Below are positions 7,680 to 55,259 of a stretch of DNA of 64,000 nucleotides, one piece after another. The stretch is from Bacteroidales bacterium (GTDB lineage Bacteria; Bacteroidota; Bacteroidia; Bacteroidales; P3), in contig JAGBJI010000010.1 of the NCBI GenBank assembly GCA_017934545.1, forward strand, positions 32,396 to 96,395. Direction: 5' to 3'. Under the pieces are notes generated by a model. That model saw only the letters and a list, made by a program, of their open reading frames with translations, was not told the DNA's origin and made no database searches. Made by a program: the position numbers and the translations under genes. The first letter of the stretch is position 1. Each line of letters opens with the position of its first letter.

Positions 7680-7684
7680 AGTTT

Positions 7685-7951: not shown

Positions 7952-7967
7952 AATATCTCCTGTTTTG

Positions 7968-7998
7968 CCTGCAAAAGTACAAAGAAATTTTTAATTCA
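7968..7998. repeat. 31-bp direct repeat, right copy; probable promoter of the TA operon
   Basis: Identical to 7289-7319. The minus-strand TACTTTTG box (7972-7979) lies about 21 nt upstream of the antitoxin ATG at 7951. Confidence 0.85.
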
Positions 7999-12310: not shown

Positions 12311-12315
12311 ATATA

Positions 12316-12852
12316 TTATTTTATTAAGATTTGTTTTACGGTTTCCCAAAGCACAATTCCGCAAGATACACTCACATTGAACGAATGTTTGGTGCCGAAC
12401 TGCGGAATTTCAATCACACCGCCGCAGGCGTCAATCACATCCTGCGACACTCCTTCCACTTCGTTGCCGAGTACTAGCGCCAAAGGCAACCGGTTGACCG
12501 CAAAATTTTGAAGCGGTATTGAGTTTTCGGTTTGCTCAAGTGCATACACACTATAGCCTTGTGCCTTTAAAGCATTGACACATTCAAGAGTTGATTCTGC
12601 ATATTGCCATTTCACGCTCTGCGTAGCACCCAATGCCGTCTTGTTTATCTCTCTGTGGGGCGGTGTAGCCGTAATTCCGCACAAAAATATCTCTTCCAAG
12701 CGGAACGCATCGGCGGTTCTGAACACTGAACCTATGTTTGACATGCTGCGTATGTTGTCCAAAACCAACACAACTGGCGTTTTGTCCGAAGATTTAAACT
12801 CTTCCACGCTCATACGTCCCAATTGCTGCATTGAAAGTTTACCGTGTGACAT
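12316..12852 (-). CDS. SpoU/TrmH-family RNA 2'-O-methyltransferase
   Basis: [21 protein letters not shown]...[11 protein letters not shown]...[24 protein letters not shown] are the SPOUT class motifs. Confidence 0.8.
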
Positions 12853-29547: not shown

Positions 29548-30873
29548 TTACTCGGCACCTACGGCTTGCCTGTATTTCAATGTTTTTATCTGCAAATCGG
29601 CTTTTGCGTCCTGCAAATCATTCTGCGATTGAACAAGCAACATCTGCGACTGCAACAAATCGGACATCGTTACCGTGCCTGCTTTAAAGAAGTTCTGATG
29701 ATTACGCAGGTTTTCCTCTGCCTGTTCAACGCTTTTCTGCATTACCTGCACTTGTTTGGTTGCGGCACTCATTTCGTTGTACGTTTGACGGATGCGGAGT
29801 TGAAGTTTTTGCGTGTTATCCTCCAATTCGTTTTGTGCAGCAATGATTTCCAAATTCTTTTTCTTAATTCTGTGACTGCCTCCCCACCAATCGCTGATAG
29901 GAACGCTGACAGTGGCAAAGACAAAACCGCGTTTGTAATCTTTATCCATTAAATTATTGTACGCATACGCAGCACCAACGGCAACACTTGGCAGATTACT
30001 TCCCGTTTCTATCTTTTTCAGCAACTCTTTCGCCTCTACGTTCTTTTTCAACAGTTGATATTCGTTAGTGTTCGTTACATCGGCATTAAGCAACTCTGTT
30101 TGCACCTGCGTGCAGTCATAAACCAATGTCATATCTTCACCAAACGCCACTCCCATGTGTTGGGCCAAAAGCATTTTGCTCAGTTTCAATCCGTCTTCAA
30201 GGCGTATCTTGTTTACCGCCATCTCATTGAGTTTCAAATCTACCTGAAGCACATCGTTATTTGTGCGTATTCCCGCCTTTACGGCAAGGTTTACGTCCCG
30301 CTTTATTGAATTTAACATTTCTATTGCGGCATCTACGGTCTTTAGTTTGTTTTCCAAATTCACCACCTGCCAGAAATATGTTTCCGAAAGCAAATTTATC
30401 TCGTTTTTAGTCAGATTATATTTCAACGAATCCGCTTCCAAGCCCACTCTTGCGAGCTTATTACCGTTTATTATCCTGCCTCCTGCGAATATGGGTTGAA
30501 CTGCCGACACCGAAGCAATTATTCCGTCATCTATATAGCCCGACTGTTGCGGCACAAAGGCACCCAGCGACGGCATGGTCTGCAAAATATTCTGCATAGC
30601 CATCATCTGTTCCTGCGACATGTTGATTTCAATTAAATCTTTGTTGGCTTTGAACGCTCCGCCCGTAGCACTGACCTGTGGAAAATAGTTAGTAAATGCT
30701 TCCTTTTGCGTTTGACGGCTTTGTTGCAGCGAAATGTCGGCGTTTTTCAACGTCAGGTTGTTTTTCAAGGCCGAATCCTTTACTTGATTTAAGGTATAAG
30801 TCTGTGCATTTATACATATCGGTGCAACAAATACTGATATTATTAATATAATTATTGAATTTATCTTTTTCAT
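29548..30873 (-). CDS. TolC-family outer membrane efflux protein
   Basis: Signal peptide. Two-repeat coiled-coil OEP architecture. The start ATG overlaps the stop of the upstream RND fragment (ATGA). Confidence 0.85.
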   Translation of the reverse strand: MKKINSIIILIISVFVAPICINAQTYTLNQVKDSALKNNLTLKNADISLQQSRQTQKEAFTNYFPQVSATGGAFKANKDLIEINMSQEQMMAMQNILQTMPSLGAFVPQQSGYIDDGIIASVSAVQPIFAGGRIINGNKLARVGLEADSLKYNLTKNEINLLSETYFWQVVNLENKLKTVDAAIEMLNSIKRDVNLAVKAGIRTNNDVLQVDLKLNEMAVNKIRLEDGLKLSKMLLAQHMGVAFGEDMTLVYDCTQVQTELLNADVTNTNEYQLLKKNVEAKELLKKIETGSNLPSVAVGAAYAYNNLMDKDYKRGFVFATVSVPISDWWGGSHRIKKKNLEIIAAQNELEDNTQKLQLRIRQTYNEMSAATKQVQVMQKSVEQAEENLRNHQNFFKAGTVTMSDLLQSQMLLVQSQNDLQDAKADLQIKTLKYRQAVGAE

Positions 30874-31042
30874 AACTGATTCTTGTTTTCTTTTTTACTG
30901 ATTAAGGCGTAGGCAACGGGCAGCACGGTTAGAATAAAAAACATTGTAAGTATAGTTCCGTAACATATAACTGCACCCATCGGCATCCACAAAGAACTTT
31001 TGCCTAATATCATCGGTATAACTCCCATACTTGCCCACGCAG
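30870..31042 (-). pseudogene. 3' fragment of the RND efflux transporter gene, separated from its 5' part by the mobile element
   Basis: Minus-strand translation AWASMGVIPMILGKSSLWMPMGAVICYGTILTMFFILTVLPVAYALISKKENKNQL* continues, in frame, the ORF that breaks at 55245. Confidence 0.85.
31028..31042. repeat. 15-bp direct repeat (attL core) of the mobile element
   Basis: TACTTGCCCACGCAG is identical to 55245-55259. Confidence 0.9.
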
Positions 31043-31432: not shown

Positions 31433-32194
31433 ATGGCAACAAAAATACAGCAAATATTAGAGCAAGTTCCACACGACTCGGTATTATTCGGTTCTTGGCT
31501 TTCAAGTCAAGGATTGGATGCTCGTGGGCAGCACTCTTATATGAAGAGCGGATGGCTCGACCGTATATCCCAAGGAGTGTATAAAATACATGGTTCATCG
31601 CCAACGCTGATGGCTGCAGTATCATCTTATAACACGCAACTTTCTAAACAATGCATAGTAGGTGCTTATACTGCTTTGGAAATGCGTGGGTACTCTCATT
31701 ATCTCTCAATGGGAAAGCCTATGGCATTCTTGTTTACTAACAAAAGAAATAAGTTGCCTTTGTGGTTACTAAAGGAGGAGTGGGATATGACCATAAAATA
31801 TATGACCACCTCTTTTCTGGGTGATGAACTATTAGGTGTAGAAACAATGACCGTAGAGCAACATGATTTGCTTGTATCTTCTCCTGAACGTGCCATACTG
31901 GAGTGTCTGAACTTGCCAGACGCATCATCTTCTTTGCTTGACATCTATTATATAATGGAGAGCATGATGACATTACGTCCTAAACTTGTACAGGCATTGC
32001 TGGAGGCATGCACTTCACAGAAAGTGAAACGCCTATTCCTCTATATGGCAGAAAAGGCAAATCATTCCTGGGTCAAGGCCTTGAAACTTGAGAACATCAA
32101 TTTGGGTACATCGAGGTTTATGATAACAGCCACAGGAAAGTACATCAACAAGTATAATATGACAATATCCAAAGAACTTGCAGAATATGAATGA
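31433..32194 (+). CDS. abiEi: AbiEi-family antitoxin / transcriptional regulator (type IV TA)
   Basis: Start chosen at MATKIQQIL. N-terminal wHTH-like region. Paired with, and overlapping, a downstream AbiEii nucleotidyltransferase gene. Confidence 0.7.
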   Translation: MATKIQQILEQVPHDSVLFGSWLSSQGLDARGQHSYMKSGWLDRISQGVYKIHGSSPTLMAAVSSYNTQLSKQCIVGAYTALEMRGYSHYLSMGKPMAFLFTNKRNKLPLWLLKEEWDMTIKYMTTSFLGDELLGVETMTVEQHDLLVSSPERAILECLNLPDASSSLLDIYYIMESMMTLRPKLVQALLEACTSQKVKRLFLYMAEKANHSWVKALKLENINLGTSRFMITATGKYINKYNMTISKELAEYE

Positions 32195-33110
32195 CAACAT
32201 AAAATCAAGTGTTTATGCACAAAAGGTAGAACTACTGCTTCGCCTTATTCCGATTGTGATGGACGAGGGAGTATTTGCTATACATGGTGGTACAGCCATC
32301 AATCTGTTCCTGAAAGATTTACCCCGCTATTCGATAGATATTGACTTGACGTATATACCATTGGCTGACAGAAAAAACAGTTTGGACGACATCAACTTAC
32401 ACCTGAAATCCATTGCTGATAAGGCAAAGAAAGCATTCAAAGGGATGCACATTGTTCCAAACTTCAGTACGTGTAAATTGCTGTGTGAGTATCGAGGAAA
32501 GCAAGTAAAAATAGAGGTGAACCAGACAAAGAGGGGAATTATCGGTGGTGATTGTCTGTCTATACCATTGAGCGAGAAGGCACAAAGCGAGTTTTCTCTT
32601 TTTTGTGAAGCCAAAGTTGTGCCTTTAACTCAGTTGTATGGTGGTAAGATTGCTGCGGCACTCTCTCGTCAACATCCACGTGATTTATTTGACGTGAAGT
32701 ACATGGATATTCCTCTAAGCGAATGTCGTGAGGGGTTCATCTTCTGTTTGTTGGGAAGTGACAGACCGATATATGAGTCTTTTGCTCCAAGTCTGATTGA
32801 CCAGCGTGAGGCTATGGAGAACCAGTTCTCTGGAATGACAGAAATCCCCTTTACATACGAAGAGTTTGAAGAGACTCGTACAAAGCTCATCCACGATGTC
32901 AAATCACTCATGACGGAAGAAGATAAGAAGTTTCTAATCAGTTTTGAATCTGGCCAGCCAGAATGGGGCGGATACGAATTTGAATGCTTCAAGGATTATC
33001 CATCGGTACAATGGAAACTCCTTAATTTGAAGAAACTGGCTAAGCAGAATCCTCAAAAGTTGAGCAAAGAAGTTAAGAAACTGAATGCTATTTTGAAACA
33101 TAGTATGTAA
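32178..33110 (+). CDS. abiEii: AbiEii/AbiGii nucleotidyltransferase toxin
   Basis: HGGTAINLF...SIDIDLTY NTase motifs and ...QHPRDLFDV block. 17-nt overlap with abiEi. Confidence 0.78.
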   Translation: MQNMNDNIKSSVYAQKVELLLRLIPIVMDEGVFAIHGGTAINLFLKDLPRYSIDIDLTYIPLADRKNSLDDINLHLKSIADKAKKAFKGMHIVPNFSTCKLLCEYRGKQVKIEVNQTKRGIIGGDCLSIPLSEKAQSEFSLFCEAKVVPLTQLYGGKIAAALSRQHPRDLFDVKYMDIPLSECREGFIFCLLGSDRPIYESFAPSLIDQREAMENQFSGMTEIPFTYEEFEETRTKLIHDVKSLMTEEDKKFLISFESGQPEWGGYEFECFKDYPSVQWKLLNLKKLAKQNPQKLSKEVKKLNAILKHSM

Positions 33111-33839: not shown

Positions 33840-35111
33840 ATGACAGCTATTGTAGGGACAATAAACAGAAGAGGTGTTGCTTTTGCAGCAGATAGTGCAG
33901 CGACACATACAATATCTTCAAAGCATAAGATTACAAATCATGCAAACAAGATATTTGAGTTGTCGAAATACCATCCTGTCGGGGTTGCATTATGTGGAAA
34001 CCTTGACTTCTTAGGACTTCCATGGGAAGATATAATTAAGTTGTTTAGATCAAAGATGAAGCGTAAAGGTTATAAAACATTGAAGGAGTATTCTGACGCA
34101 TTCTTTATCTTTGTCCGGACAAACATCATGTCTGGTTTAAAAAACGACCAAAAACGAAATCTGGAAGTTATAGTAAATGGTTTTCTCAACGAGATTGTGA
34201 ATCTCTCAAGAAATGACCTTGAAGAAAAGAAGTTAGAGGTCAAAGATGAAACGATGTTTCCTATGTTCATAGAGAGACTTGACTATTTTGAAGATATGTA
34301 TAAGGGGAAAGAAACAAATAGGGATTTTTCCTCATACACATTAGATAAATTCAAGGTGTACTCTGATGAAATTGTTAGTAGGCTATTAAGTCCATTAACT
34401 ACCAATCCATTATGTCCTATAGAATTTAAAGAAAAGTTTGTTCAGTCTTTGTATTATATTATTATTTCCCAAATCCATGTTTATTTAGTTAATACAGAAT
34501 TGATATTCTGGGGATATGGTGATGATGAAATATTTCCTTCGTATTATTCCTATGTTATCAGTTCTGCATTTGATGATAGAATTAAAATTACCCTTAAGAG
34601 CCAATATGCGGTCTCTAATGATAGAATAGCCTGTGTTGAGCCATTTGCCCAAACAGATGTAGCAAATACTGTTGTAAGGGGAATCGATGCCGATTTACGA
34701 ATGAAATTCTATGAAAGTTATAATGCATCAATTACTATGTTTCGTGATGAAATTGTCTCAAAGTTAGAGTTGGCTGGTGCACCAATGAAACTAAAAGAGG
34801 TTTTGACATCGTTAGATATGAATTTATATACAAATACTTTTGTTGATGGTATGGAAGCATATATCCAAGACAATTATATACAGAAACTTGTTGATACTGT
34901 AGCATATCTTAGTAAAGAAGATCTTGCCGATATGGCAGAGAGTCTTGTGCGTATGACATACTTAAAGAGACGAATAACTTCAGAAGAAGAAAGTGTCGGA
35001 GGTCCTGTGGATGTTGCGGTTATAACTAAAGGAGATGGTTTTATTTGGCTTAAATGTAAGCACTATTTTGAAGCTGAACTAAATCCACATTTTTTTAACG
35101 TTCTAAAATGA
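33840..35111 (+). CDS. Proteasome-beta/HslV-like Thr-nucleophile (Ntn) hydrolase with a large internal insertion
   Basis: Met-Thr start (MTAIVGT...). Asp at position 17 counted from Thr1 (FAADSAAT). Lys in NKIFEL. ELIFWGYGDD strand. C-terminal SVGGPVDVAVITKGDGFIWL parallels the archaeal beta-subunit SGGMIDVAVITRKDGYVQL (recalled from memory). 423 aa, versus about 200 for a beta subunit. Confidence 0.55.
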   Translation: MTAIVGTINRRGVAFAADSAATHTISSKHKITNHANKIFELSKYHPVGVALCGNLDFLGLPWEDIIKLFRSKMKRKGYKTLKEYSDAFFIFVRTNIMSGLKNDQKRNLEVIVNGFLNEIVNLSRNDLEEKKLEVKDETMFPMFIERLDYFEDMYKGKETNRDFSSYTLDKFKVYSDEIVSRLLSPLTTNPLCPIEFKEKFVQSLYYIIISQIHVYLVNTELIFWGYGDDEIFPSYYSYVISSAFDDRIKITLKSQYAVSNDRIACVEPFAQTDVANTVVRGIDADLRMKFYESYNASITMFRDEIVSKLELAGAPMKLKEVLTSLDMNLYTNTFVDGMEAYIQDNYIQKLVDTVAYLSKEDLADMAESLVRMTYLKRRITSEEESVGGPVDVAVITKGDGFIWLKCKHYFEAELNPHFFNVLK

Positions 35112-35274: not shown

Positions 35275-35322
35275 TGACATTTTACTAATGCTTAGGGACA
35301 AATTTTGAGTGCTTTAATTTTC

Positions 35323-35340
35323 CGATAAATCAGAATTTAG
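35323..35340. repeat. Shufflon recombination core s1 (CGATAAATCAGAATTTAG)
   Basis: Same orientation as 38911-38928. Reverse complement of 36080-36097 and 39561-39578. Confidence 0.85.
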
Positions 35341-35728
35341 CGACACCTGACCGTTCGTCAAGAGTGGCAGGAGTTCGTCGCACTGCTTAATCAAGTTATT
35401 ATTTTCTTCAATGTTCGCATCTATTTTCGCGTACAACTCGTTTACTCTGTCAAAGAATTTATAGACAACGCTTTCTTGAGGTTTAATCCACTTATTTGCA
35501 ATAAATGTTTCGGTCATAAAGTTTTTAATACCACTTGTTTTTCCTTCATAATTGAACATTACGCCATTGTCATAAAACATTTTCCAAACGTAAAAGAAAT
35601 ACGAGGAATAACGTGTATCTGAGAAACTAAAAGCATGACAGAAATTAGAGCACGTCAAACTGCCTCCATTTCTTCGGATAACGCCTGGAGTGATAAGAGC
35701 ACTTCGACCCGTAGCCTGTACAGGACTA

Positions 35729-35738
35729 CCCCCCCCCC
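35729..35738. repeat. C10/G10 homopolymer in the silent hsdS cassette
   Basis: Ten consecutive C on the plus strand. It is the site of the frame break between the two partial ORFs. Confidence 0.95.
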
Positions 35739-36079
35739 TGACACTTCTATAACAACATCCCAAGCAGAAAGCAACTTTGACATGTTCGCTTTTTTAATGT
35801 ATCGCTTTGGAAGATAATTTAGTTTCACTATGTCCGCTCCTCTGATACAGCCTATTTCAATTGGTGTGTTTGGTGTTTGTTCATCTGCTCCCCAATCGCC
35901 AGTATTGTTCTTACTTATAAATTCATTCATCCTACAAACATTCCATGTATCTGGTATATTCATTTGAAGCTCTTCATTCCAAACCATCGCACCGCCACTT
36001 GACTTGTACGGCTTGCCCTCCTCATTCGGGAAGTCAAACTGCACAAACCAGTAGTCGTAGAGTTGCTTGGCGAGTGCTT

Positions 36080-36097
36080 CTAAATTCTGATTTATCG
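36080..36097. repeat. Shufflon recombination core s2 (CTAAATTCTGATTTATCG)
   Basis: Reverse complement of s1 and s3. Direct with s4. Confidence 0.85.
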
Positions 36098-36134
36098 TTC
36101 TTTATATATTATATAGGACATAAATTAGGCAAAT

Positions 36135-37126
36135 ATGAGAGAAAGTATTATTCAGGCAATCGTCGCGGATATGCAGCGCGACTTGGACTGCCGACAAATG
36201 GCAAGGCTGAAAGCCGTGCTTATCAAAGAACTGCAAGATGTGGAGATAACCGAGTGTGCCAATAGGAATGAGCAACGGAAAAAGGAGAACGCGGAACTGT
36301 TGGATAGTTTCCTGTCTGCCAAGAAGGTCGAGGGTTGCTCTGAGAAAACGCTGTCTTATTATCGGCATACTATAAACGATTGCTGCTGACGGTGGCTGTG
36401 GCTGTGTACCATGTGACTACCAGCGATATTCGTCAATACCTCTCTGATTACCAGGAAGAAAAAGGAAGCAGCAAAGTTACGATTGACAATATGCGGCGTA
36501 TTTTCTCCAGTTTCTTTGCGTGGCTGGAAGATGAGGACTACATCGCCAAAAGTCCCGTGCGCCGTATTCACAAGGTGAAAACCGACTCGTTGGTGAAAGA
36601 AGTGTTGAGTGATGAGCAGTTGGAGCAACTACGGGATAATTGCACAAACATACGTGATTTGGCTATCATTGATATCCTTTCTTCTACAGGTATTCGTGTG
36701 GGGGAACTGGTGAAACTTAATCGTTCAGACATTGATTTCCATGAACGCCAATGTGTGGTCTTTGGCAAGGGAAATAAAGAGCGTATGGTCTATTTCAATG
36801 CGCGAACCAAACTGCATCTGCAACAATACCTAAAGTCCAGAACGGATAGCAATTCTGCTCTGTTTGTTTCCCTGTTGTCACCCCACAACCGCTTAACCAT
36901 TAGTGGGGTGGAAGTCCGTATTCGCGGAATGGGCAATCGTTTGTCAATCCCCAAAGTCCACCCACACAAGTTTCGTCGCACCCTTGCGACGATGGCTATA
37001 GACAAAGGGATGCCCATAGAGCAGGTGCAGCGGCTATTAGGGCATGTGCGCATCGACACCACGCTACATTACGCCATTGTGAACCAAAACAATGTTAAAA
37101 TGGCGCATAAAAAGTATATTGGCTAA
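36135..37126 (+). pseudogene. Shufflon-associated tyrosine recombinase, split by a 1-nt frameshift near 36372-36385
   Basis: The N-terminal ORF (36135-36389, ...EGCSEKTLSYYRHTIN) and C-terminal ORF (36380-37126) are in different frames. The C-terminal ORF has ...TTSDIRQYL...GIRVGEL...HPHKFRRTLAT...LLGHVRIDTTLHY (R..HxxR..Y catalytic pattern). Confidence 0.75.
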
Positions 37127-37158
37127 GCCCATTTCGCCTATATTTCAGGGAAAAGTTG

Positions 37159-37166
37159 TAACTTTG
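37159..37166 (+). promoter_or_regulatory. -7 box (TAACTTTG) upstream of the yhcG-like gene
   Basis: TAnnTTTG match about 18 nt upstream of ATG 37184. Confidence 0.4.
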
Positions 37167-37183
37167 CACCAAAATGGTGCAAT

Positions 37184-38362
37184 ATGGCAGAAAACAATAA
37201 AGGAGAAAAAGGCGTATCAAGCTCAAACATTTTCCATGCAGTGATTGGAAAATCTGAAGCAGGTTCTCTTCCTGATGGGTATGAATTATGGCGAAAAGAA
37301 ATCATTGCACTCATAGAACAAGCGAAGTACAAGGCTGCTTTGAGTGTCAATTCCGAGTTACTGTCACTCTATTGGAAAATTGGTACAGACATCATCAAGA
37401 AACAGAAGGAACAGGGCTGGGGTACTCAGGTAGTTGAACAATTAGCGAAGGATTTATCAGTCCGCTTCCCAGATGATAGGGGCTATTCTGCTCGTAATCT
37501 GTGGAATATGAAAAGGTTCGCCCATGAATATCCTGATTTCCCATTTCTGCAAGTGCTACTTGCAGAAATTCAAAACGTCCCAATTCTACAAGTGGCACTT
37601 GCAGAATTAAAGGAAGCTGGCAAAGACTATGTGCAAGTGCCGCTTGCACAAATCACATGGTATCATCACATATCCTTGATTCCGAAGGTCAAGGAAGTAG
37701 GCCAGCGCGCATTCTACATCATGGCTACGGCACAGGAAGGCTGGAGCCGCGACGTGATGCTCATGCAGATTGACAATGGTTATATAGAGGCAAAGGGCAA
37801 ATCTATCAATAATTTTTCTGCTACACTGCCGCCCGTACAGTCAGACTTGGCACGCTACACCTTCAAAGACCCTTACAATTTCAGTTTCTTGGGTACTGTT
37901 GCACTGCAAAATGAACTTGACATCGAGAAGAAACTGACAGAGAAGGTCACCGATTTCCTCTTGGAAATGGGTAAGGGTTTCTCTTTTGTCGGTAGGCAAT
38001 ACCACTTGTCTGTTGATGGTGACGATTACTATATCGACATTCTGATGTACCACTTGAAACTGCACTGCTATGTGGTTGTGGAATTGAAGGCAGTCGAATT
38101 TATTCCAGAGTTTGTCAGCAAGCTGAACTTCTATATCTCTGCTGTTGATGAATATGTGAAAGCACCAGAAGACAAGCCTACTATCGGATTACTACTGTGC
38201 CGCACTAAGAGCGACACGAAGGCTCGCTTCGCACTTCGCGGCATCACCCAGCCATTGGGTATTGCCCAATACGAGACAGAAAAACTGTTTGCCGATGTTG
38301 CATCGTCCCTGCCGCAAATAGAGGAACTGGAAGATAATATGGAAAAGGAAAACGAGCGATAG
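37184..38362 (+). CDS. YhcG/DUF1016-family PDDEXK nuclease
   Basis: N-terminal ...LYWKIG..I...Q...GWG..VV.QLAKDL...FP...G.S..NLW.M..F helical domain. C-terminal ...FSFVGRQYHL...DYYIDILMYHLKLHCYVVVELK PD-(D/E)xK core. Confidence 0.8.
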   Translation: MAENNKGEKGVSSSNIFHAVIGKSEAGSLPDGYELWRKEIIALIEQAKYKAALSVNSELLSLYWKIGTDIIKKQKEQGWGTQVVEQLAKDLSVRFPDDRGYSARNLWNMKRFAHEYPDFPFLQVLLAEIQNVPILQVALAELKEAGKDYVQVPLAQITWYHHISLIPKVKEVGQRAFYIMATAQEGWSRDVMLMQIDNGYIEAKGKSINNFSATLPPVQSDLARYTFKDPYNFSFLGTVALQNELDIEKKLTEKVTDFLLEMGKGFSFVGRQYHLSVDGDDYYIDILMYHLKLHCYVVVELKAVEFIPEFVSKLNFYISAVDEYVKAPEDKPTIGLLLCRTKSDTKARFALRGITQPLGIAQYETEKLFADVASSLPQIEELEDNMEKENER

Positions 38363-38363
38363 G

Positions 38364-38978
38364 ATGGAACTGAAAATTATAGGCACTATAGAACGGTTTA
38401 TCTCTGGAGATTGGGGAGAAGAACAATATTCAGAACACACACCATGTAAGGTCGTGTGTGTGCGTGGTGCAGACATTGTACCCATAGAAAGCAATGACTT
38501 CACACATATTCCCACACGATATATTAGCAAGCATTCGTTTCGCACCAAATGCTTGCAAGCAGGTGATATTGTTGTTGAGAAGTCAGGTGGCAGTCCTACC
38601 CAATCAACGGGACGGGTTGCCTATATATCTCAGGAACTGATAGATGCTGTTGGTTCCGTAGTGTGCTCAAACTTCTGTATCGCCTTTAGGGTTAAAGACA
38701 AGTGGAACCCGCTCTATATCTACTACTATCTGCAATGTGTATATAACAACGGCGTATTCTTTAACTTTGAAGGAAAGACTTCGGGTTTGAAGAATCTTCA
38801 ATTGGAAGCAGCCTATCAAGCAGTTCCAATTGAAGATATAGATAAAACGGAACAAGACAAGGTTGTTGCCGTTTTAGACGGTATCCATCGTAAAATAAAT
38901 ATTAACCGTGCGATAAATCAGAATTTAGCGACACCTGACCGTTCATCAAGAGTGGCAGAAGTTCGTCGCGCTGCTTAG
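38364..38978 (+). CDS. hsdS': Convergent hsdS half-gene (alternative N-terminal TRD ending in the central NRAINQNL core)
   Basis: ATG 2 nt after the yhcG stop. TRD related to the 35314-36097 cassette (GDWG...RGADIV...SGGSPTQSTGR...CSNFC...EGKTSGLKN). The reading frame enters the 27-bp IR at 38902-38928 in the same codon phase as hsdS. Confidence 0.7.
   Translation: MELKIIGTIERFISGDWGEEQYSEHTPCKVVCVRGADIVPIESNDFTHIPTRYISKHSFRTKCLQAGDIVVEKSGGSPTQSTGRVAYISQELIDAVGSVVCSNFCIAFRVKDKWNPLYIYYYLQCVYNNGVFFNFEGKTSGLKNLQLEAAYQAVPIEDIDKTEQDKVVAVLDGIHRKININRAINQNLATPDRSSRVAEVRRAA
38902..38928. repeat. 27-bp perfect inverted repeat, left arm (contains core s3)
   Basis: TTAACCGTGCGATAAATCAGAATTTAG is the exact reverse complement of 39561-39587. 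Confidence 0.95.
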
Positions 38979-40119
38979 TCAATTCCTCACATTCGTTTTT
39001 TACTTGTTTTATCTTGTAAAACAGTGGTGTAATTGCTTCATCGAACTTCTGTAGCAAACTAATGTCGGGCAGTAATACTGATATGGAATACAGAGTTGAT
39101 GCGGTCATACTTGGTACTCCTGTGCCAGAGTCCCATATTGTAAAGTCAATGTCCTTGATAGTAAAGAAAACATATTTAGCACAATGAGGAACTTTCATTT
39201 CTGAATAAAACATTGTGTCAACCGTCCAAAAGGTTTCGTTTACATACATGATGTTGTTTAACGTACCCTTTCTTGGCATTAAGACTGACTCCCCCGTATA
39301 TAAGCTCTCATTTACCCTACGCATTTCACCACCGCTACCATAAACAGGATATAATCCAGATGCCAAGTGCTTATGGTCACGTCCGTTTTTTATGGTCAAA
39401 AAATGCTCTAACGTACAATTATTCCATCCATCAGGTATTTCACGTTTTAGTTTCTCATTCAATACCATAGCACCACCACTACTTTTGTATGGTTTGCCTT
39501 TCTCGTTGGGGAAGTCAAACTGCACAAACCAGTAGTCGTAGAGTTGTTTGGCGAGTGCTTCTAAATTCTGATTTATCGCACGGTTAAGGGCAATCTTCTT
39601 GTCTAATGCCGAGAAAATTTCGCCAATACGCTTTTGCTCCTCTAACGACGGGAGCAATAAAGGCATATTTTCAAGAGTATCAATCGATAGCGTATATCTC
39701 ATACCGCTACCTGTAGCATTCAGTTCAAAATATCTCTGTATATAGGCAGAGTGCATAAAAGCATTGAGATACTTTCCGCATAGTTTTGTCTCGTCAGGAG
39801 TAATCAGGGCACAATGATAACCAAGCAGCACATTATCGAAGTTATCAGCAATATAGGTCGGGATACCAATGTCATCCCTCGTCTCACTATCCTTGGTGAA
39901 GGCTACTTGTCCTTTCTTGATAGTGAACTTTTTTATTTCCTTAGTATTTGCCGAAGCTTCCATAAATGAGCTTGTCATTTCTCTTGTAATAGCCCAATTA
40001 TGATACACATCTGTAAAGTTGCATAATTTTACAGGCGTTTCGTTTTCCTTCGTCTTTTTATCAACGCTGCTTATCTCAACCTTAGCAACGTCAGATAACT
40101 TGTATCTTATAAGTTTCAT
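38902..40119 (-). CDS. hsdS: Type I restriction-modification specificity subunit
   Basis: 405 aa. Two TRDs separated by LNRAINQNLEALAKQLYDYWFVQFDFP and ending in LPLLMNGQVSLNSDL. Downstream of hsdM in the same orientation. Confidence 0.9.
   Translation of the reverse strand: MKLIRYKLSDVAKVEISSVDKKTKENETPVKLCNFTDVYHNWAITREMTSSFMEASANTKEIKKFTIKKGQVAFTKDSETRDDIGIPTYIADNFDNVLLGYHCALITPDETKLCGKYLNAFMHSAYIQRYFELNATGSGMRYTLSIDTLENMPLLLPSLEEQKRIGEIFSALDKKIALNRAINQNLEALAKQLYDYWFVQFDFPNEKGKPYKSSGGAMVLNEKLKREIPDGWNNCTLEHFLTIKNGRDHKHLASGLYPVYGSGGEMRRVNESLYTGESVLMPRKGTLNNIMYVNETFWTVDTMFYSEMKVPHCAKYVFFTIKDIDFTIWDSGTGVPSMTASTLYSISVLLPDISLLQKFDEAITPLFYKIKQVKNECEELTKQRDELLPLLMNGQVSLNSDLSHG
39561..39587. repeat. 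27-bp perfect inverted repeat, right arm (contains core s4)
   Basis: CTAAATTCTGATTTATCGCACGGTTAA, in the central conserved region of hsdS. Confidence 0.95.
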
Positions 40120-40131
40120 AACTCAATTTCT

Positions 40132-40929
40132 TTAGAAAGGCAAGTTGTCATCATCCCACACAGGAGATGCACTATTTGCCTCAGAGGGGTATTTCGTTTT
40201 ATAGTAATTCAAAAGGAATAAGCCAACCGTTGTTACTGCGTTTATTATAAAATAGGCATATATGGAGTCTGTGACAATATAATTCCCATCTACCTTTCCA
40301 TGGAGTATGGTCTTGTCACTGCGCAAGTCTTCTATAGCTCTACCACAGTTAATTAAGGAACTTGCTATTGTCCTGATTTCAGTTGGACAGGAGCTGTCTG
40401 TATTTAACTGAAAAGCCTTGCAAATTGATTTTATCAGAGAAGATAATGTGTCCTTATCCCATTGTATACTAATTCTTTTGTCTTTGAGTATTTCCTTGAT
40501 AATACTCTCTAATGCAGAATTTGCCAACCCAATGGCAAGGCTTGGGTCTTCCTCAACGTTTTTAAATGCTTTGTCAAAGGTTTGACTGGCCATTTCATAA
40601 CTTGATTTAAGTTCATTCTTGAATGTAGGAATGCATGGAACATAATCAGGAGTTTCAATTCCAAGATCAATAGCCATTTTTATTAAGGTTTCCCCATCTA
40701 CGTAATGCAAAGTTTTCTTTACATCAATCTTTTTGCGCTCATTGTCTTTGAAAACGATAGGGAAGTTCTCGTTGTCCCCAAAAGAATCATATATTTCATG
40801 CCACTTTTCTATATAATTCTCAACATCATCATAGCTTCTGTATAGTTCAAATAAGCGGTCATTGATGTTTTGGATGATGCTCATTTGATATTTTGGAGAA
40901 ATCTTGGTGTTCATCTCAGTAGTTCTCAA
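40132..40929 (-). CDS. Abortive-infection family protein (Abi_C-like C-terminus) embedded between hsdM and hsdS
   Basis: C-terminal ...AIEDLRSDKTILHGKVDG... resembles the Abi_C LR....HG motif. AT-richer by eye than the flanking hsd genes. Confidence 0.5.
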   Translation of the reverse strand: MRTTEMNTKISPKYQMSIIQNINDRLFELYRSYDDVENYIEKWHEIYDSFGDNENFPIVFKDNERKKIDVKKTLHYVDGETLIKMAIDLGIETPDYVPCIPTFKNELKSSYEMASQTFDKAFKNVEEDPSLAIGLANSALESIIKEILKDKRISIQWDKDTLSSLIKSICKAFQLNTDSSCPTEIRTIASSLINCGRAIEDLRSDKTILHGKVDGNYIVTDSIYAYFIINAVTTVGLFLLNYYKTKYPSEANSASPVWDDDNLPF

Positions 40930-40940: not shown

Positions 40941-42599
40941 TCAATTGTCTGCCAATTTCAGGGATGCCAACTGCTCCATAATTTCCTCTTCCAAGCGGTG
41001 GCTCACGGCAAACTGTTCGGTTAGTGTCTGTTTGTAGTTGGCAATGCGGCTGTTGAATTCTTCTTCCGTAATATCCACATAGTCAATCTTGATGTCAAAA
41101 TACTGTCCAGCAGAGAGACTGTAGTTCTTTTCCTTAATCTCATCGTAAGTAACGGCTACTGAGAAATCATCAACGGATTGCTTGTCAAGGAACGTGTTGA
41201 CAATCAAATCTACTTCCGCATCAAGCAGGCGACGCTTCTGGTTGTTGCCCTCTTTGTACTCTTCGCCCAGCTTGCTGGCATCAATCAGGATAACCTTGTC
41301 GGCTTTTGCCGACTTGTCGAAGAAGATGACAGACACATTGGTGCCTGTCGTGGCAAACACATTGCTGGGCATAGACACACAGCCATAGACCCAACGTTCA
41401 TCGACAATGCGCTGGAGGATGCGTTTCTCCACACCACTCTTGGCAGTAATGAAACCAGTAGGAATCACTACAGCAGCCTTTCCACCATTCGTCTTTAGTG
41501 AGTTTAGCACATGTTGGAGAAAGCATGTGTAGATAGCCATCTTGGGCTTGTTGGGGTCAACCTTAGTAACGGCATTGGGAACACCTGCCCAAAAGCGGAT
41601 GGAATCAGAGGCTAAGGTGTCGCGGTATTCTGGGAAGTCAAGTTTGAAAGGAGGATTGCTGACAATGAAGTCAAACTTCTTTAAGGTGCCGTTGCTCTCC
41701 TTGTGCGAAGGTTCTGTCAGTGTGTTACCCTGCACCACATTTGGCAGCGAGGCTGAGAGGTTGTTGAGGATGAGATTTAAGCGCAGCATCTCGCTCGACT
41801 TCTCAGAAATGTCCTGACTGAATATGGAACAACGGTCTTCCCCAATTTGGTGAGCCAAAGCCATGAGCAAGGTACCCGTACCAGCGGATGGGTCGTAGCA
41901 GGTGATACCACGAAGGTTAGTGTCACGACCAACCAGCAGCCGAGCCATCACCTGCGCAATGGCACGTGGGGTGTAGTATTCTGCGTATTTCCCCCCCCCT
42001 CCGGCATTGTTAAAGCCTTTCAGCAGATGCTCAAAAATGCGAGAAAAGAAATCGTACTTCTCAGCAAACACCTCTTCAAAGTTGAACGATGCCACATTGC
42101 GCATTAGCGATTTGGCAAACTCGTCACGCTTCTGTGTGTCGGTGACGTAGGTTGTAACAGGACTGAAAATGTTTACTTTGCTCTTGCCCGATGTGGTGAC
42201 AGAAAATGTTTCAGCGTTCACACTGGCTATATCAATCAGCGTGGCATCGAGCATGGTTGAAAAGTCTCCTTTCGTGGCTGAATTATAGAGATGGGACAAG
42301 GTGTGCTCTGGCTTTAGCCGTGGCACTGATGCTGGCAGATAGCTAAAGAGGTCTTCAACATCTCCATCGGTAAAGGTGTCATACTCTGCATCCCATTTCT
42401 CCGCCTTCGACAGTCGGTCGCCATAGACGGGATTACGTTTGGCTTCGTAACCGAACTTGTCGTTGAAGAACTTATAGAGGAACATTTCTGTCACGATTTT
42501 GTATTCGCTGCCCGTTCCTGCCAGTCCGAATGCTCCTGTTGTACTCTTCAGAGAGTCAATGAGGGCAATGGTTGCTTCTGTTATGTTGATACTGCTCAT
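40941..42599 (-). CDS. hsdM: Type I restriction-modification DNA methyltransferase subunit
   Basis: GKYAEYYTPR, DPSAGTG (motif I) and SNPPF (motif IV, N6-adenine MTase). Confidence 0.93.
   Translation of the reverse strand: MSSINITEATIALIDSLKSTTGAFGLAGTGSEYKIVTEMFLYKFFNDKFGYEAKRNPVYGDRLSKAEKWDAEYDTFTDGDVEDLFSYLPASVPRLKPEHTLSHLYNSATKGDFSTMLDATLIDIASVNAETFSVTTSGKSKVNIFSPVTTYVTDTQKRDEFAKSLMRNVASFNFEEVFAEKYDFFSRIFEHLLKGFNNAGGGGKYAEYYTPRAIAQVMARLLVGRDTNLRGITCYDPSAGTGTLLMALAHQIGEDRCSIFSQDISEKSSEMLRLNLILNNLSASLPNVVQGNTLTEPSHKESNGTLKKFDFIVSNPPFKLDFPEYRDTLASDSIRFWAGVPNAVTKVDPNKPKMAIYTCFLQHVLNSLKTNGGKAAVVIPTGFITAKSGVEKRILQRIVDERWVYGCVSMPSNVFATTGTNVSVIFFDKSAKADKVILIDASKLGEEYKEGNNQKRRLLDAEVDLIVNTFLDKQSVDDFSVAVTYDEIKEKNYSLSAGQYFDIKIDYVDITEEEFNSRIANYKQTLTEQFAVSHRLEEEIMEQLASLKLADN
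41991..41999. repeat. C9/G9 homopolymer inside hsdM (in frame, encodes GGG of NAGGGGKY)
   Basis: Nine consecutive C on the plus strand. Confidence 0.95.
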
Positions 42600-46626: not shown

Positions 46627-47646
46627 TTATATTCTTCTGCCACGTTTCTTCTTTTTCTTTAGCCGCTGTTGCTCTACGGCAAATGCAGCCTCTTGTGCTG
46701 CGGTGGCATCATAGCCAGACGGGGTGAACAGTCCACCGATTCCAGAGGCAACACTCTCAATGCTACTTTCCTCGTGCCTCGGTTTCGGTTCTTCCCGTTG
46801 TATAGGAGCCGCTTGCGGTCGGGGTGCTGCCATTGGACGATGCGGTTCATAAGTGTGCTGCGTTTGCTGATACTTCTCCTTGAATTTCTTGTTTCGTTCC
46901 AGTCGTTTCTCAATGTTAGCAAAACTGAACTTACGGTCAATCTTCGAGCCAGAGAACACATGCTTACCCTTGATGCGCTCGAACTTGTTCGCTTCGCTTG
47001 CGAAGAACTTCACACCATCAATCTTATCACCAGTTCTGCTGTACTTGAATTCTGTCATTATCCCTTGCTTGTGAAGGGCTTCACGAAGTTGCTCCCACGA
47101 AGTGGCTTTGGGTAGTTCCTGTTTCAATGCCTCGTAGATGTCGTACTTGGCTCTGTCATGTGGGCGCAATCGCTCTGTGTTCACATGCTCCTTACCGTCT
47201 GCCATATATAGCCCGTACTTTTCTGTCAGTGCTTTGCAAACCTTTTCATTGCGATAGCGGTCATTCTTGTCGGAAATAGTCTTGCCGTTGTTATCCACTC
47301 GGTTGAATACGATGTGGCAATGTGGGTGATTGCGGTCAGTATGGCGGGCTATGATAAACTGTGTATTTCGGATGCCCATCTTTTCCATGTACTCGTAAGC
47401 AATTTTTACCATTAGCCTGTCATCGTTCCGCAGGCGGTCACCATCCTCTGGCGAGAAACTGAGGGAGATATGCCCAACGGTATTCTTCACCTTGTCGTTG
47501 AGCAACGTCTGTAACTCAAACTGCTCTGCCATTTCTTCGGGAGTGCCAGATACACCCTCGCTGGCAAGAAGTCGTGCCTTATCCTCACGAAGTACATAAC
47601 TTACGCAACCAGCAAACTCAGAACCTTTAGTTATCTTTCCTATCAT
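46627..47646 (-). CDS. Relaxase/mobilization nuclease
   Basis: GHISLSFSPED...ARHTDRNHPHCHIVFNRV (HxH relaxase motif). Lys/Arg-rich C-terminus. Confidence 0.85.
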   Translation of the reverse strand: MIGKITKGSEFAGCVSYVLREDKARLLASEGVSGTPEEMAEQFELQTLLNDKVKNTVGHISLSFSPEDGDRLRNDDRLMVKIAYEYMEKMGIRNTQFIIARHTDRNHPHCHIVFNRVDNNGKTISDKNDRYRNEKVCKALTEKYGLYMADGKEHVNTERLRPHDRAKYDIYEALKQELPKATSWEQLREALHKQGIMTEFKYSRTGDKIDGVKFFASEANKFERIKGKHVFSGSKIDRKFSFANIEKRLERNKKFKEKYQQTQHTYEPHRPMAAPRPQAAPIQREEPKPRHEESSIESVASGIGGLFTPSGYDATAAQEAAFAVEQQRLKKKKKRGRRI

Positions 47647-48084: not shown

Positions 48085-49170
48085 TCATAGGCGCAAGCCC
48101 TTTCTCTTGCCATCAGTCATTCCGTCAGTCATGTTGTTAATGGGCTGTTTAACTGGTTGTAATTGCAACTGATTTATCAATTTATCAATTGACTGATTTG
48201 TCAGTCTCATCTGTTCCAGTTTGCCCTCCTCGGTCTCAATGTTAAGCAGGAAGTCGGCAATGTCTAGTCCCTGCTTTCGCTGTTCATCCGTCGCTGTCCG
48301 TTCCAAATAATCATACAACTGTGCATGGATGCCGAGTTGTCTCATCACAGGAATCTTGCCCCTCCAGTAGTCCGTCGCTCCGAGGTCGGGGAAGAGTGAG
48401 ACAGTCCGTCCACGGAGAACGCTCAGGCATTCCTCATTGAGACATCCGTTCTTTCCGCCAGATGCTATCCATGTGAAATATGGAAGATGGACGGTGCAGA
48501 CAAGAGCCGTCTTTTCGCTCTCCACCAACGCAACGGGCTTCTCCTTTTCTGCATCCAGCAGGTGCTCACCGAAGAAGCATTGATGAAGATTGAAGTCCGA
48601 AAGGTGCAGGGCAGAGTGTGCCCATGTAACATGGCAGAACGGCAGCTTCACTCTCTTGCCTGTCAGCGGATTGTAAAGAATTATCTTACCCGTCCGCGCC
48701 TTGCCCTCTTTATCAATCTGCCAGAAAACGGTTGCCCCTTGCCAGTGTCTGGAGGTGCCGACATGGTATCTCCTCATCAGTTTCATTGTCTGCTCCCTAC
48801 CAAATTTGAGGGATAGAAAGCGGAAGAGATTGTTAGCCTCATAGTGCTGCATACTGGCTTCCACCAATTCCGAAGGGATGTAAGAGATTGGTTTGGGATG
48901 CTCTGTGATGTGTGGAGTATAGAGAGGCTTCTTTCCTCCTGCCAGTTGTTCTTGGGCAAACGGATTGTCCTTGAAGTAGTCGCTGGGGGTATAGTGATAC
49001 CCACAACGCTGCTCATGGTCGCATCGACCGACATAGGGAGGGAACTGTATCTTTCCTTCTGTGTCGATATACCTTGAAAAGCACCGCTTCTGTTTGCACT
49101 CTGGGCAGGTGTGTCTGGTGCTGATGCCTTTATAGGGCTGTAGTCTGAATCTGTATGTACTCGTATTCAT
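48085..49170 (-). CDS. Zinc-finger/Toprim-like (primase-like) protein of the IME backbone
   Basis: N-terminal CPECKQKRCF...C.H..RCGYH zinc ribbon. C-terminal acidic Toprim-like region (LVESEKTAL...LFPDLG). Confidence 0.55.
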   Translation of the reverse strand: MNTSTYRFRLQPYKGISTRHTCPECKQKRCFSRYIDTEGKIQFPPYVGRCDHEQRCGYHYTPSDYFKDNPFAQEQLAGGKKPLYTPHITEHPKPISYIPSELVEASMQHYEANNLFRFLSLKFGREQTMKLMRRYHVGTSRHWQGATVFWQIDKEGKARTGKIILYNPLTGKRVKLPFCHVTWAHSALHLSDFNLHQCFFGEHLLDAEKEKPVALVESEKTALVCTVHLPYFTWIASGGKNGCLNEECLSVLRGRTVSLFPDLGATDYWRGKIPVMRQLGIHAQLYDYLERTATDEQRKQGLDIADFLLNIETEEGKLEQMRLTNQSIDKLINQLQLQPVKQPINNMTDGMTDGKRKGLRL

Positions 49171-49275: not shown

Positions 49276-50640
49276 TTATATTTTCGTGTATTCCCCGTGC
49301 CGTTCCCGTTTGAACAGGATACCGATGTTCCGACTGAGAAAATCTTTGAAAGCCCTCTCTTTCATCCCTTCCCTGTCTGCCAGTTCCAGTCCCTCGGCAG
49401 TCGTGAATTGGCTTGGCAGTTGGTGGAGGATGGCGAGTTGCTGCATGGTCAGTGATTCCTCGTTCATAATTCCTTGCACATTGAGGGCTGTCATTCGGAA
49501 ATACTCGGTCAGCAAGATTGCCTTCTCTACTGATTCCCTGTCAATGGCATCTTTGTCAGCCTCTCCACAAGCCCATCGTGCCAGTTGCAGAATCAGGCAG
49601 AAGCGAATAAGGTAGGTTTCCAATTTACAGTAGATGCCCACAATGACCTCACTTGTTTCAGTATCGCACATTTCGGCTAATCTGTGCTGATATTCGTAGA
49701 GGGCTGCACGAGCCTCTGGCAGAAAGCACAGAATCTTGTACGGGTTCTCATTGCACGGCATAAAGTCAAGTGCTATAAGTCTTGAAAGAATGTCTGCCCA
49801 TTGCTGGTCGATGTCCTCTGAGAGTTCACGGTCATTCCAGCGTATCTTCTGCTGGTCGGATGGAAGGACAAACAGGATGCGGTCAATGAATCCGTTACAT
49901 GAACGCTCGCCTTTAGCCAGTTCGCCCAACACTTTCTTCTGGATGGTGCCGATGACGGAGATATATGGTCGCTTGATGAATACTGAACTCCTTGCGCTCT
50001 TGCGGTCGGAAATAGTTGTCTTGGCACTGAAGACAGAAAGCCAGAACTGTTCTTCGGAACCGTTGTTGTAGCGGTTGAAGTTCTTGAACCATGCCGACAG
50101 TTCATCAGCCCACAGACAAAGCCCACGCTGATTCTGTGCGTGTATCAGGCTCAGACCTTCGGGGGTGATGTCGGATACAAGGAACCGTTTGCGGACTGGC
50201 TCTTGTGGATATTCCTCCAGTCCAGCCTCGTTACGCTCCTTACGGGTCATCTGCACCATCTTCTCAAATTCCATGTACTCCTGCTCAAATTGCAGGTTCT
50301 GCTGATAGTCGTAGGCAAGAAACGGCTTCATGGCAAAGGATAGGGGATGGCTCTTGTTGGCTACTGGTCTTCCGACGAGTGCCATATAGAGGATGGCACT
50401 CTCCAACCAGCCGCTTTTCACCTGTACCAGATGCGTGTTGCCAATCCCGACGGCTATGGCGGTCAGCATGGAGGCTGCCACATAGTCGATGGGAAAACTC
50501 TGGCACTCATGCAACTCTGTGATGATGTGCTGAATGGGCTGCGGAAAGACACTGACGGGGAAGTCGGTGCCGCTCAATCGTAGTCCGAAGTCCGTTGCAT
50601 TGGCAAGGATGCCTTGTGGGGTAAGGATATTCTTCTCCAT
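49276..50640 (-). CDS. DUF3987-like (VirE/primase-helicase-associated) protein
   Basis: 454 aa. Position and size are typical of Bacteroidales IME/CTn backbone genes. Family assignment is from memory only. Confidence 0.45.
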   Translation of the reverse strand: MEKNILTPQGILANATDFGLRLSGTDFPVSVFPQPIQHIITELHECQSFPIDYVAASMLTAIAVGIGNTHLVQVKSGWLESAILYMALVGRPVANKSHPLSFAMKPFLAYDYQQNLQFEQEYMEFEKMVQMTRKERNEAGLEEYPQEPVRKRFLVSDITPEGLSLIHAQNQRGLCLWADELSAWFKNFNRYNNGSEEQFWLSVFSAKTTISDRKSARSSVFIKRPYISVIGTIQKKVLGELAKGERSCNGFIDRILFVLPSDQQKIRWNDRELSEDIDQQWADILSRLIALDFMPCNENPYKILCFLPEARAALYEYQHRLAEMCDTETSEVIVGIYCKLETYLIRFCLILQLARWACGEADKDAIDRESVEKAILLTEYFRMTALNVQGIMNEESLTMQQLAILHQLPSQFTTAEGLELADREGMKERAFKDFLSRNIGILFKRERHGEYTKI

Positions 50641-53809: not shown

Positions 53810-53904
53810 AATTTGTTGTATTAAGTGATTGATAATGATATATTTGTAATTTTCGTGCAAAGTAAAATGGTTATCCATTAGTTACCAAAATCACCGAATA
53901 ATAA

Positions 53905-55060: not shown

Positions 55061-55244
55061 ATAGCGATTTGCCCCATTTGCGATTGTCCGCTGACAACCT
55101 CCGAGGTACAAATGTGGTACAAAAACAGGCTAAAAAAAGAAATTCAACGATTGGCATCGATGAATTAGGAAATAAATAAAGCACTCATTTAAAGTGCCTT
55201 ATGTGATGATTAGTGATAAATGGTAATCGTTGGTAATTGCGAAT

Positions 55245-55259
55245 TACTTGCCCACGCAG
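55245..55259. repeat. 15-bp direct repeat (attR core) of the mobile element
   Basis: TACTTGCCCACGCAG is identical to 31028-31042. Confidence 0.9.

Follow-up and report, generated by a model that had tools for sequence, protein, structure and literature searches.

Convergent half hsdS genes flanking one invertible target recognition domain cassette in a Bacteroidales Type I restriction-modification locus, probably frozen by two frameshifts

The 64-kb stretch of Bacteroidales bacterium DNA analyzed here (GenBank assembly GCA_017934545.1, contig JAGBJI010000010.1, positions 32,396 to 96,395; hereafter the window) carries a Type I restriction-modification (RM) locus in which the C-terminal target recognition domain (TRD) of the specificity gene, hsdS, forms a cassette bracketed by short inverted repeats and placed between two convergent N-terminal half genes, in the neighbourhood of the gene for a Xer-like tyrosine recombinase. 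We consider it likely that this locus represents a type of phase-variable Type I system that is already known and widespread, and that the present copy is frozen in the state joining the N-terminal domain TRD1 to the C-terminal domain TRD2, because its recombinase gene has undergone a −1 frameshift and its spare cassette a +5 frameshift in a G tract. The hsdR, hsdM and hsdS genes are intact and should act with one fixed specificity. An earlier note on this DNA had presented the locus as an inversion shufflon of hsdS; its architecture and mechanism are borne out by comparative evidence, whereas switching of this copy is doubtful in light of the frameshifted recombinase. The two lesions, a split recombinase and a split left cassette, had been overlooked at the time.

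The sites at which inversion would take place were located by a core search of the window and compared with 100 shuffles of it. The 18-bp core, CGATAAATCAGAATTTAG, occurs exactly four times in the 64 kb, in the orientations + − + − and at the very positions reported before (cores A to D; Table 1), compared to a chance expectation of 0.01, and at least four copies were reached in none of the 100 shuffles. Cores A and C are located within an 81-nt "tail-end" repeat (D2) of 90% identity, and cores B and D within a 165-nt "midpoint" repeat (D1) of 82% identity, the last 71 nt of which contain a single mismatch; the claim that a second cassette (35314-36097) duplicates both ends of hsdS is thus upheld. 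Around the C-terminal TRD of hsdS, TRD2, cores C and D extend into the perfect 27-bp inverted repeat that had been described, with 632 nt between its two 27-nt arms. The core itself is an imperfect palindrome, TAAAT-CAGA-ATTTA, with an asymmetric spacer. Translation confirmed its dual reading: forward, it encodes AINQNL, from the central conserved helix of HsdS, and in reverse LNSDLS, followed by two codons and a stop. Both orientations are in frame because the same nucleotides yield a piece of the central helix when read one way and a dispensable tail when read the other way. The nine extra nucleotides of the 27-bp repeat correspond to the L/I-N-R codons of both half genes, and the TTAA inside the L/I-N codons supplies the TAA stop of the opposite strand.

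Inverting 38929-39560 in silico gave exactly the two products that had been foreseen, namely a 407-aa plus-strand HsdS consisting of the N-terminal domain TRD-X, then EALAKQLYDYWF..., then TRD2, and ending in SLNSDLSHG and a stop codon, and a 202-aa minus-strand half ending in NQNLATPDRSSRVAEVRRAA and a stop codon. Exhaustive inversion at oppositely oriented cores led to 16 reachable DNA states, in all of which every junction between an N-terminal half and a cassette is in frame, and across which either half joins either cassette or stays a half; in none of the 16 does inversion at these cores carry TRD-X into the hsdM operon. Products that include the spare cassette, TRD2', stop early at its G10 tract. 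The "2 x 2" specificities once anticipated thus do not apply to this copy, of which only one C-terminal TRD is usable now, TRD2' being frameshifted.

In the mechanism that we propose from the layout of the sequence, the locus-encoded Xer-like tyrosine recombinase would invert single-TRD cassettes at the cores, each cassette (end of the central region, C-terminal TRD and tail) being bracketed by two inverted cores and the asymmetric CAGA spacer setting the orientation. The interval between cores C and D would serve as the expression slot, into which two N-terminal halves read, TRD1 on the minus strand from the hsdM operon and TRD-X on the plus strand from behind the recombinase and yhcG genes. 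Depending on its orientation, the cassette would make a full-length HsdS of one half and leave the other as a half protein of ~200 aa. The interval between cores A and B, devoid of an inward reader, would be a storage slot for the spare cassette, and inversions between A and D and between B and C would swap cassettes between the two slots. We tentatively suggest that one C-terminal TRD cassette is in this manner time-shared by two convergent, separately transcribed N-terminal halves, an arrangement that may not have been described explicitly before. Were this so, each flip would exchange one pair of full-length and half-length HsdS proteins for another instead of acting on one expression site; were both strands in addition expressed and the halves able to dimerise, as many as two methylation specificities would change with a single inversion.

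The first of the two lesions splits the recombinase open reading frame (ORF) into 36135-36389 and 36380-37126 (84 and 248 codons, in different frames). Compared to an intact 330-aa relative, one G is absent between 36374 and 36375, and the break falls inside the SAM-like N-terminal domain, of which Pfam profile positions 1-28 and 38-83 are found on separate ORFs. The second lesion is a run of ten C at 35729-35738 (G10 on the coding strand of TRD2'), where intact relatives have five bases. Sequencing error was considered as the origin of both frameshifts and rejected: the split into 84 and 244 aa and the G10 tract recur in independently made short-read assemblies of this strain from other samples (L001-L004, 100% or 99.95% identical; L numbers designate related loci throughout) and are therefore mutations. 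TRD2' is intact in the relatives L008-L011 and L106, and L008 and L106 combine G5 with an intact 330-aa recombinase. Since an intact recombinase and C5 are found in the L106/L107 lineage, which is 99% identical over the region, the lesions are recent. In Neisseria, slippage of a G tract within hsdS is known to serve phase variation (NgoAV; PMC7394358); the G10 tract seen here in a silent cassette more likely marks decay than such a device. Viewed against the "epigenetic inverton" of Huang et al. (2020), the locus displays the 27-bp inverted repeat, the four alternating cores, three hsdS pieces and preserved frames, and lacks a functional invertase of its own, its recombinase being split.

Rearrangement at the cores is evident among close relatives. 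Across the locus, L008-L011 match the window at 97-98% identity, and they encode an intact recombinase; in these, an intact TRD2' occupies the C-D slot in the opposite orientation and is fused to TRD-X, yielding a 441-aa plus-strand HsdS, and the hsdM operon is left with a 202-aa half. Neighbouring BLAST segments between the window and these contigs overlap by exactly the 18-nt cores, and the arrangement is that of model state 14, three inversions away from the window state, apart from a different cassette in the other slot. The clearest case comes from a sister lineage whose recombinase (P0044) is 84% identical, invariant across 23 contigs of different samples and associated with the same 14-nt core. 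Here, L097 is 100% identical to L099 and L104 apart from a 727-bp single-TRD cassette that is inverted between cores; in L102 and L105, this cassette is instead located upstream of the recombinase, in the other slot. Of the 18-mer, the last base moves with the cassette in this lineage and the first three remain in the flank; exchange therefore occurs inside ATAAATCAGAATTTA.

In both comparisons, identity at the junctions is restricted to the 15-18-nt core, which makes it very improbable that the rearrangements arose from homologous recombination or gene conversion at the longer hsdS repeats (about 70-165 bp) in a manner not specific to the core. Longer imperfect repeats do flank the cores (D1 and D2 above), recombinase-independent exchange at long repeats is on record for the pneumococcal ivr and tvr loci (PMC4948785, PMC6265443), and near-identical strains differ in cassette content, suggesting replacement as well. 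It is the core and not its flanks, however, whose nucleotide sequence is conserved in dozens of species, at constant distances from the recombinase gene, and the tail-end core runs antisense to the coding direction, a feature that protein conservation cannot account for. Cassette content thus turns over too, probably by homologous exchange. Third and fourth intact C-terminal TRD types with the same conserved ends are found in the same slots of L002 (7797-8581) and L008 (5041-5790).

Other relatives depart further from the layout of the window. The recombinase, half hsdS and cassettes have been kept in L096-L105 and in L106-L107, and the adjacent hsdS-hsdM-hsdR genes lost; in L096-L099, the flank of core D is a DUF6371 gene, yet the cassette is seen in three positions. 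L106 and L107, 99% identical to window positions 35320-38928, bear a 6.8-kb deletion that starts 5 nt past core C and reaches into the 5' end of hsdR. Excision through site-specific recombination at core C was rejected as its cause, the junction lying 5 nt past the core and the other end being without a core-like site. The five nucleotides left after the core (AGCAC) resemble a midpoint-type flank, hinting that the cassette of this lineage may have faced TRD-X before the deletion. In L002, site C is followed by a different cassette, and 126 nt of unrelated flank separate a degenerate D-like core from the end of the contig, which may reflect either a real strain variant or an assembly join. L013, finally, harbors a 322-nt inverted duplicate (87%) of the 3' end of the recombinase gene (7670-7991 and 12156-12477) and a second copy of yhcG between hsdS and hsdM, and has a B-like core but no storage cassette.

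The recombinase family is large, with over 8000 matches at E below 1e-40, mostly of 330 aa, and 553 confirmed relatives in species-representative genomes. The top 80 relatives include Prevotella, Bacteroides, Parabacteroides, Alistipes, Odoribacter, Muribaculaceae and Capnocytophaga, as well as Ruminococcus, Lachnospiraceae and Streptococcus at 62-66% identity. Variants of the core, TAAAT-NNNN-ATTTA, occur at fixed offsets from the recombinase gene, at about −780 (+), −57 (−), +1550 (+) and +2300 (−), the third being at +2750 where yhcG is present, and the same 14-nt core is common to many species. The whole layout (storage slot, recombinase, half hsdS, shared slot and a converging hsdS-hsdM-hsdR operon) recurs in dozens of Bacteroidales species. 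In 30 loci, hsdM has the same placement as in the window, downstream and on the other strand; in 13 more, mostly from Firmicutes, it is upstream on the same strand and reads into site A. Orientation was scored in 21 species loci in which an open frame of 150 codons or more leads into each of C and D: nine have a full-length gene that terminates at C, on the hsdM strand, another nine have one that terminates at D, on the recombinase strand, and in three it terminates at neither. The stop is found exactly two codons past the core at 38 of the 42 sites. A half gene of the TRD-X type is kept in essentially all loci as an intact ORF of ~160-230 codons with its own start directly after the recombinase gene or yhcG. 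Given the recurrence of the layout and the 9:9 split of orientations across species, a single invertible TRD between two convergent half genes is the normal wiring of the recombinase family, both states of which are common; the window locus, by the same comparison, is not unusual but displays the standard wiring of a very large recombinase/hsdS family of Bacteroidales.

The published interpretation of such loci is a different one. According to a survey (PMC7672463), they yield truncated HsdS and switch ON/OFF. On this view, only the hsdS of the hsdM operon would be expressed, a flip would truncate it, resulting in loss of activity or in a half HsdS of palindromic specificity, and the plus-strand half would be a silent store. 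We regard this as rather unlikely here, even though in tvr only the hsdS gene beside hsdM drives methylation (PMC6265443). TRD-X never enters the hsdM operon, as the enumeration of states indicated, yet persists as an intact ORF that has a start of its own; the sole full-length hsdS is on the recombinase strand in half of the species genomes; and both tails are terminated symmetrically. The sharing of the cassette by two readers offers a testable alternative to the ON/OFF interpretation, and if true, the latter would be wrong for the loci called "peculiar". For the same reasons, namely the conservation with its own start of a half gene that the hsdM operon cannot reach and the many genomes whose only full-length hsdS is on the recombinase strand, the plus-strand hsdS may be expressed; a Bacteroides-type −7 motif, TAACTTTG, 25 nt before yhcG lends this a weak further argument. 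Taken alone, the window locus adds little, as it is a decayed copy carried as cargo by a mobilizable island. What the comparison adds is a view of a recombinase family (>550 species representatives) that would share one flipping TRD between two convergent halves, with states split about evenly; the convergent wiring and the dual-coded core are under-described.

A further feature of the family concerns site B (about −57). In 12 species loci (L020-L026, L028, L047, L055, L056 and L074), its reverse reading through core B runs on in frame and free of stops, for 341-348 codons, across the whole recombinase gene; in the window this reading is out of frame. The read-through accounts for the many "Methylase_S + integrase" proteins of 530-577 aa in databases and may couple recombinase translation to cassette orientation. 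For annotation, the rule that follows is to treat ~200-aa "half" hsdS genes and 530-577-aa "TRD-recombinase fusion" ORFs close to these recombinases as switch states and not as pseudogenes or true fusions.

To assess the state of this strain in public data, ten proteins predicted over all states were looked up by exact sequence in ~15 billion proteins. Both native proteins were retrieved, on 10 and 16 contigs of a single orientation (from a metagenome-assembled genome annotated "Bacteroidales bacterium"), and none of the eight predicted recombinant proteins was. No near-exact TRD-X+TRD2 chimera was found either, the best relatives being 73-82% identical; the TRD-X+TRD2 combination exists only in more distant lineages. 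Two scans of JGI metagenomes, one for the recombinant junction and one for the left flank of core C followed by the core, returned no matches and are uninformative because the lineage is absent from the collection, the native junction being missing too. Contig breaks at the cores in Logan assemblies were considered as a sign of heterogeneity and rejected. Logan contigs are built with k of about 31, and the exact repeats around the cores, of 31-34 nt, are enough to break them.

It seems to us improbable that the shufflon is still active here through a paralogous recombinase encoded elsewhere or residual activity of the split enzyme, giving several specificities per population. The N-terminal domain of the recombinase is split in every assembly of the strain, the window contains no paralogue of the family, the recombinant proteins are missing from public data in which native ones are found on 10-16 contigs, and the spare cassette has decayed. 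Activity would be in line with the intact ORF of the catalytic domain, the four perfect cores, and the intact TRD2 and N-terminal halves, and action in trans is plausible in a family so abundant in Bacteroidales and with a 14-nt core shared by so many species. The interpretation of a frozen switch that we favor must likewise be weighed against several observations. The perfect cores and the intact TRD-X, TRD1 and TRD2 imply either that inactivation is recent or that a paralogous recombinase elsewhere in the genome may still act in trans. Uniform orientation is weak evidence of locking, as the L008-L011 lineage, with its intact recombinase, shows one state in four of four contigs, and assemblies display the majority form only. 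The hsdS gene downstream of the recombinase in tvr gave no methylation signal (PMC6265443). Lastly, the central helix of the half proteins is cut at NQNL; by analogy with truncated HsdS proteins from other systems, these halves might be active as dimers, but this is uncertain.

Phase-variable Type I systems alter genome-wide methylation and the restriction of phages and plasmids in clonal populations and are abundant in gut Bacteroidales. Phase-variable inversion of hsdS is well established in Mycoplasma pulmonis, as it is in the pneumococcal ivr/cod locus and in Bacteroides fragilis. Surveys have listed 827 loci in REBASE (PMC7672463), some 6% of the Type I systems held there (PMC7394358) and, within Bacteroidetes, 1399 candidates (PMC7641763). 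Of the characterized systems, the tvr locus of Streptococcus pneumoniae (SpnIV; TvrR; Kwun et al. 2018, PMC6265443) comes nearest to the window in the logic of its repeats, and resembles it in having a tyrosine recombinase between hsdS pieces and in handling N- and C-terminal TRD segments separately. Its ~18-bp midpoint and ~70-bp tail-end repeats share a common core, to be compared with the 18-bp core, 71-165-nt midpoint and 72-81-nt tail repeats of the window. The tvr repeats are all direct and bring about excision and reintegration of a circle, whereas the tail-end core of the window is inverted, such that single cassettes would flip; with its cores in + − + − order and hsdS pieces on both strands, the window is not of the tvr type. 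Whereas tvr further comprises a toxin-antitoxin pair (tvrAT, Phd/Doc-like) and an attenuator, the window has neither, no tvrAT-like ORFs being found upstream of the recombinase, whose start is only 37 nt away from core B. In Bacteroidales, unlike in tvr, the hsdM operon converges from the opposite strand. A streptococcal locus of tvr-like order (L090, hsdM-hsdS-recombinase-hsdS'-hsdR) encodes a recombinase that shares 62% identity with the intact relative of the window enzyme and has a 15-18-bp core that is a variant of the window core, together with a 69-nt tail repeat arranged as inverted repeats.

The second pneumococcal system, ivr or cod (SpnIII; PsrA/CreX/IvrR; Li et al. 2016, PMC4948785), likewise relies on an in-locus tyrosine recombinase to swap C-terminal TRDs, PsrA acting on a 15-bp inverted repeat (IR1) in the central region. 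Its repeats, however, are in two hsdS genes and enclose two or more TRDs plus the recombinase gene, whereas those of the window belong to a single gene, one to its central region and one to its tail, and enclose one TRD; ivr also has extra long repeats (85 and 298 bp), and its one expression site with silent, start-less partners contrasts with the two inward-reading half genes of the window. Bacteroides fragilis, from the same phylum, inverts half-gene modules at BF9343_1755-1760 to produce several HsdS proteins (Bfa9343I, BfiA; Ben-Assa et al. 2020, PMC7641763; Huang et al. 2020, PMC7672463), and comparable Bacteroidetes loci, made up of full and half S genes, have been catalogued by the hundreds. 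The B. fragilis system employs four distinct inverted repeats, of 16-47 bp, compared to one core at all four sites in the window; there is a single expression locus downstream of hsdM, and the recombinases lie outside the invertible region, whereas the window has converging strands and its recombinase inside. That the second N-terminal half of the window has its own ATG, 1 nt after yhcG, also sets it apart from the B. fragilis type.

A further comparison is with the loci of the TvrR clade (clade 2) in Huang et al. (PMC7672463). These have hsdS genes in mixed orientations, inversion of which mostly yields truncated HsdS, and were left unanalysed; mixed-orientation loci giving truncated HsdS on inversion are thus already on record. 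Clade 2 has the widest phylogenetic spread, including Bacteroidetes and Firmicutes, which matches that of the window's recombinase family, and the two are very probably the same. The portion of the text consulted contains no description of a simultaneous full-length gene on the other strand. Other parallels are found outside RM systems and among truncated HsdS proteins. In the R64 shufflon (Rci, sfx sites, pilV), as in the window, one tyrosine recombinase is paired with several short, asymmetric, alternating sites, and multiple inversions re-join C-terminal segments to a constant N-terminal part; it differs in its target, a pilus adhesin, in its recombinase subfamily and sites, and in having a single expressed reader. 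In truncated HsdS proteins (the poly-G variant of NgoAV and deletion derivatives of EcoR124I and EcoDXXI), an HsdS with a single TRD can dimerise and confer a symmetric specificity, and an hsdS G-tract can switch between full-length and truncated forms (PMC7394358, PMC6265443); the N-terminal TRD of tvr can similarly dimerise on a palindromic motif (PMC6265443). These truncations arise from slippage or engineering and not from a cassette flip, and the G10 tract of the window is in a silent cassette.

Table 1 Coordinates, in window positions, of the core sites, cassettes and genes of the locus
Feature	Position	Strand	Remarks
Storage cassette TRD2'	35314..36097	−	Part of central region, C-terminal TRD and tail; frameshifted
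Core A	35323..35340	+	Left edge of storage slot; left flank intergenic; reverse reading gives SEN and stop
Core B	36080..36097	−	Right edge of storage slot; 37 nt upstream of recombinase ATG
Xer-like tyrosine recombinase pseudogene	36135..37126	+	Catalytic-domain ORF, 36380-37126
yhcG (YhcG/DUF1016, PD-(D/E)XK nuclease family)	37184..38362	+	Accessory gene; position differs among relatives
TRD-X, N-terminal half hsdS, 204 aa	38364..38978	+	Start 1 nt past yhcG stop
Left arm, perfect 27-bp inverted repeat	38902..38928		Core C + TTAACCGTG
Full-length hsdS, 405 aa	38902..40119	−	TRD1 (39588-40119), core D, TRD2, tail through core C
Core C	38911..38928	+	Forward, central region of plus-strand half gene; reverse, C-terminal tail of hsdS
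TRD2, candidate invertible C-terminal TRD cassette	38929..39560	−	At present completes minus-strand hsdS
Core D	39561..39578	−	Within central conserved region of expressed hsdS
Right arm, perfect 27-bp inverted repeat	39561..39587		Core D + CACGGTTAA
Abi_C-domain ORF	40132..40929	−	In operon, between hsdM and hsdS
hsdM (N6_Mtase)	40941..42599	−	
hsdR, 1054 aa	42605..45769	−	

The genes of the locus (Table 1) conform to a Type I system, with hsdM and hsdR adjacent to an hsdS gene whose TRDs are of the PF01420 family: the 405-aa HsdS displays two Methylase_S stretches (E 3.8e-19) and the 204-aa half one. hsdR, hsdM, the Abi_C-domain ORF and hsdS form a tight minus-strand operon, with gaps of 5 and 12 nt flanking hsdM and hsdS, and two TATCTTTG motifs are present upstream of hsdR. 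The TRD-X half gene extends past core C into sequence antisense to the tail of hsdS, and so converges on and overlaps hsdS. The recombinase and yhcG genes sit between cores B and C, that is, inside the invertible region, as had been stated. The catalytic domain of the recombinase matches Phage_integrase (PF00589, E 2.4e-33) and its N-terminal domain SAM_4; the protein aligns over its full length to XerC-like, XerA and XerD structures, as do the motifs GIRVGE, GKGNKER, HPHKFRRT, LLGH and TLHY of the catalytic region. TRD-X and TRD2' are 41% identical, a likeness suggesting that a fusion of the two may recognize a near-symmetric site. A 29-nt unit occurs three times within yhcG (37539-37651), its copies pairing as inverted repeats as well (D3/I5); the yhcG of L008 is shorter by one such unit (371 vs 392 aa), and that of L009 has a larger deletion. 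The Abi_C-domain ORF has been kept in L008-L011, at 251-261 aa.

The RM locus is part of the cargo of a ~24-kb integrative mobilizable element that covers 31000-54900 of the window. Its other genes encode AbiEi/AbiEii (31433-33110), a DUF6155 protein, an unknown 423-aa ORF (33840-35111), a relaxase (46627-47646), Zn_ribbon_16/DUF6371 (48085-49170) and DUF3987 (49276-50640) proteins, an Arm-DNA-binding tyrosine integrase (52697-53878) and an HTH_17 protein (53905-54834). The AbiEi/AbiEii pair, 3 kb from the recombinase region, is unrelated to tvrAT. No tRNA genes were found within the window. The element lies between the gene of an AcrB-type pump (55210-58176) and that of its outer-membrane partner (29548-30873), and a 52-aa ORF at 30870-31028 resembles a displaced AcrB C-terminus.

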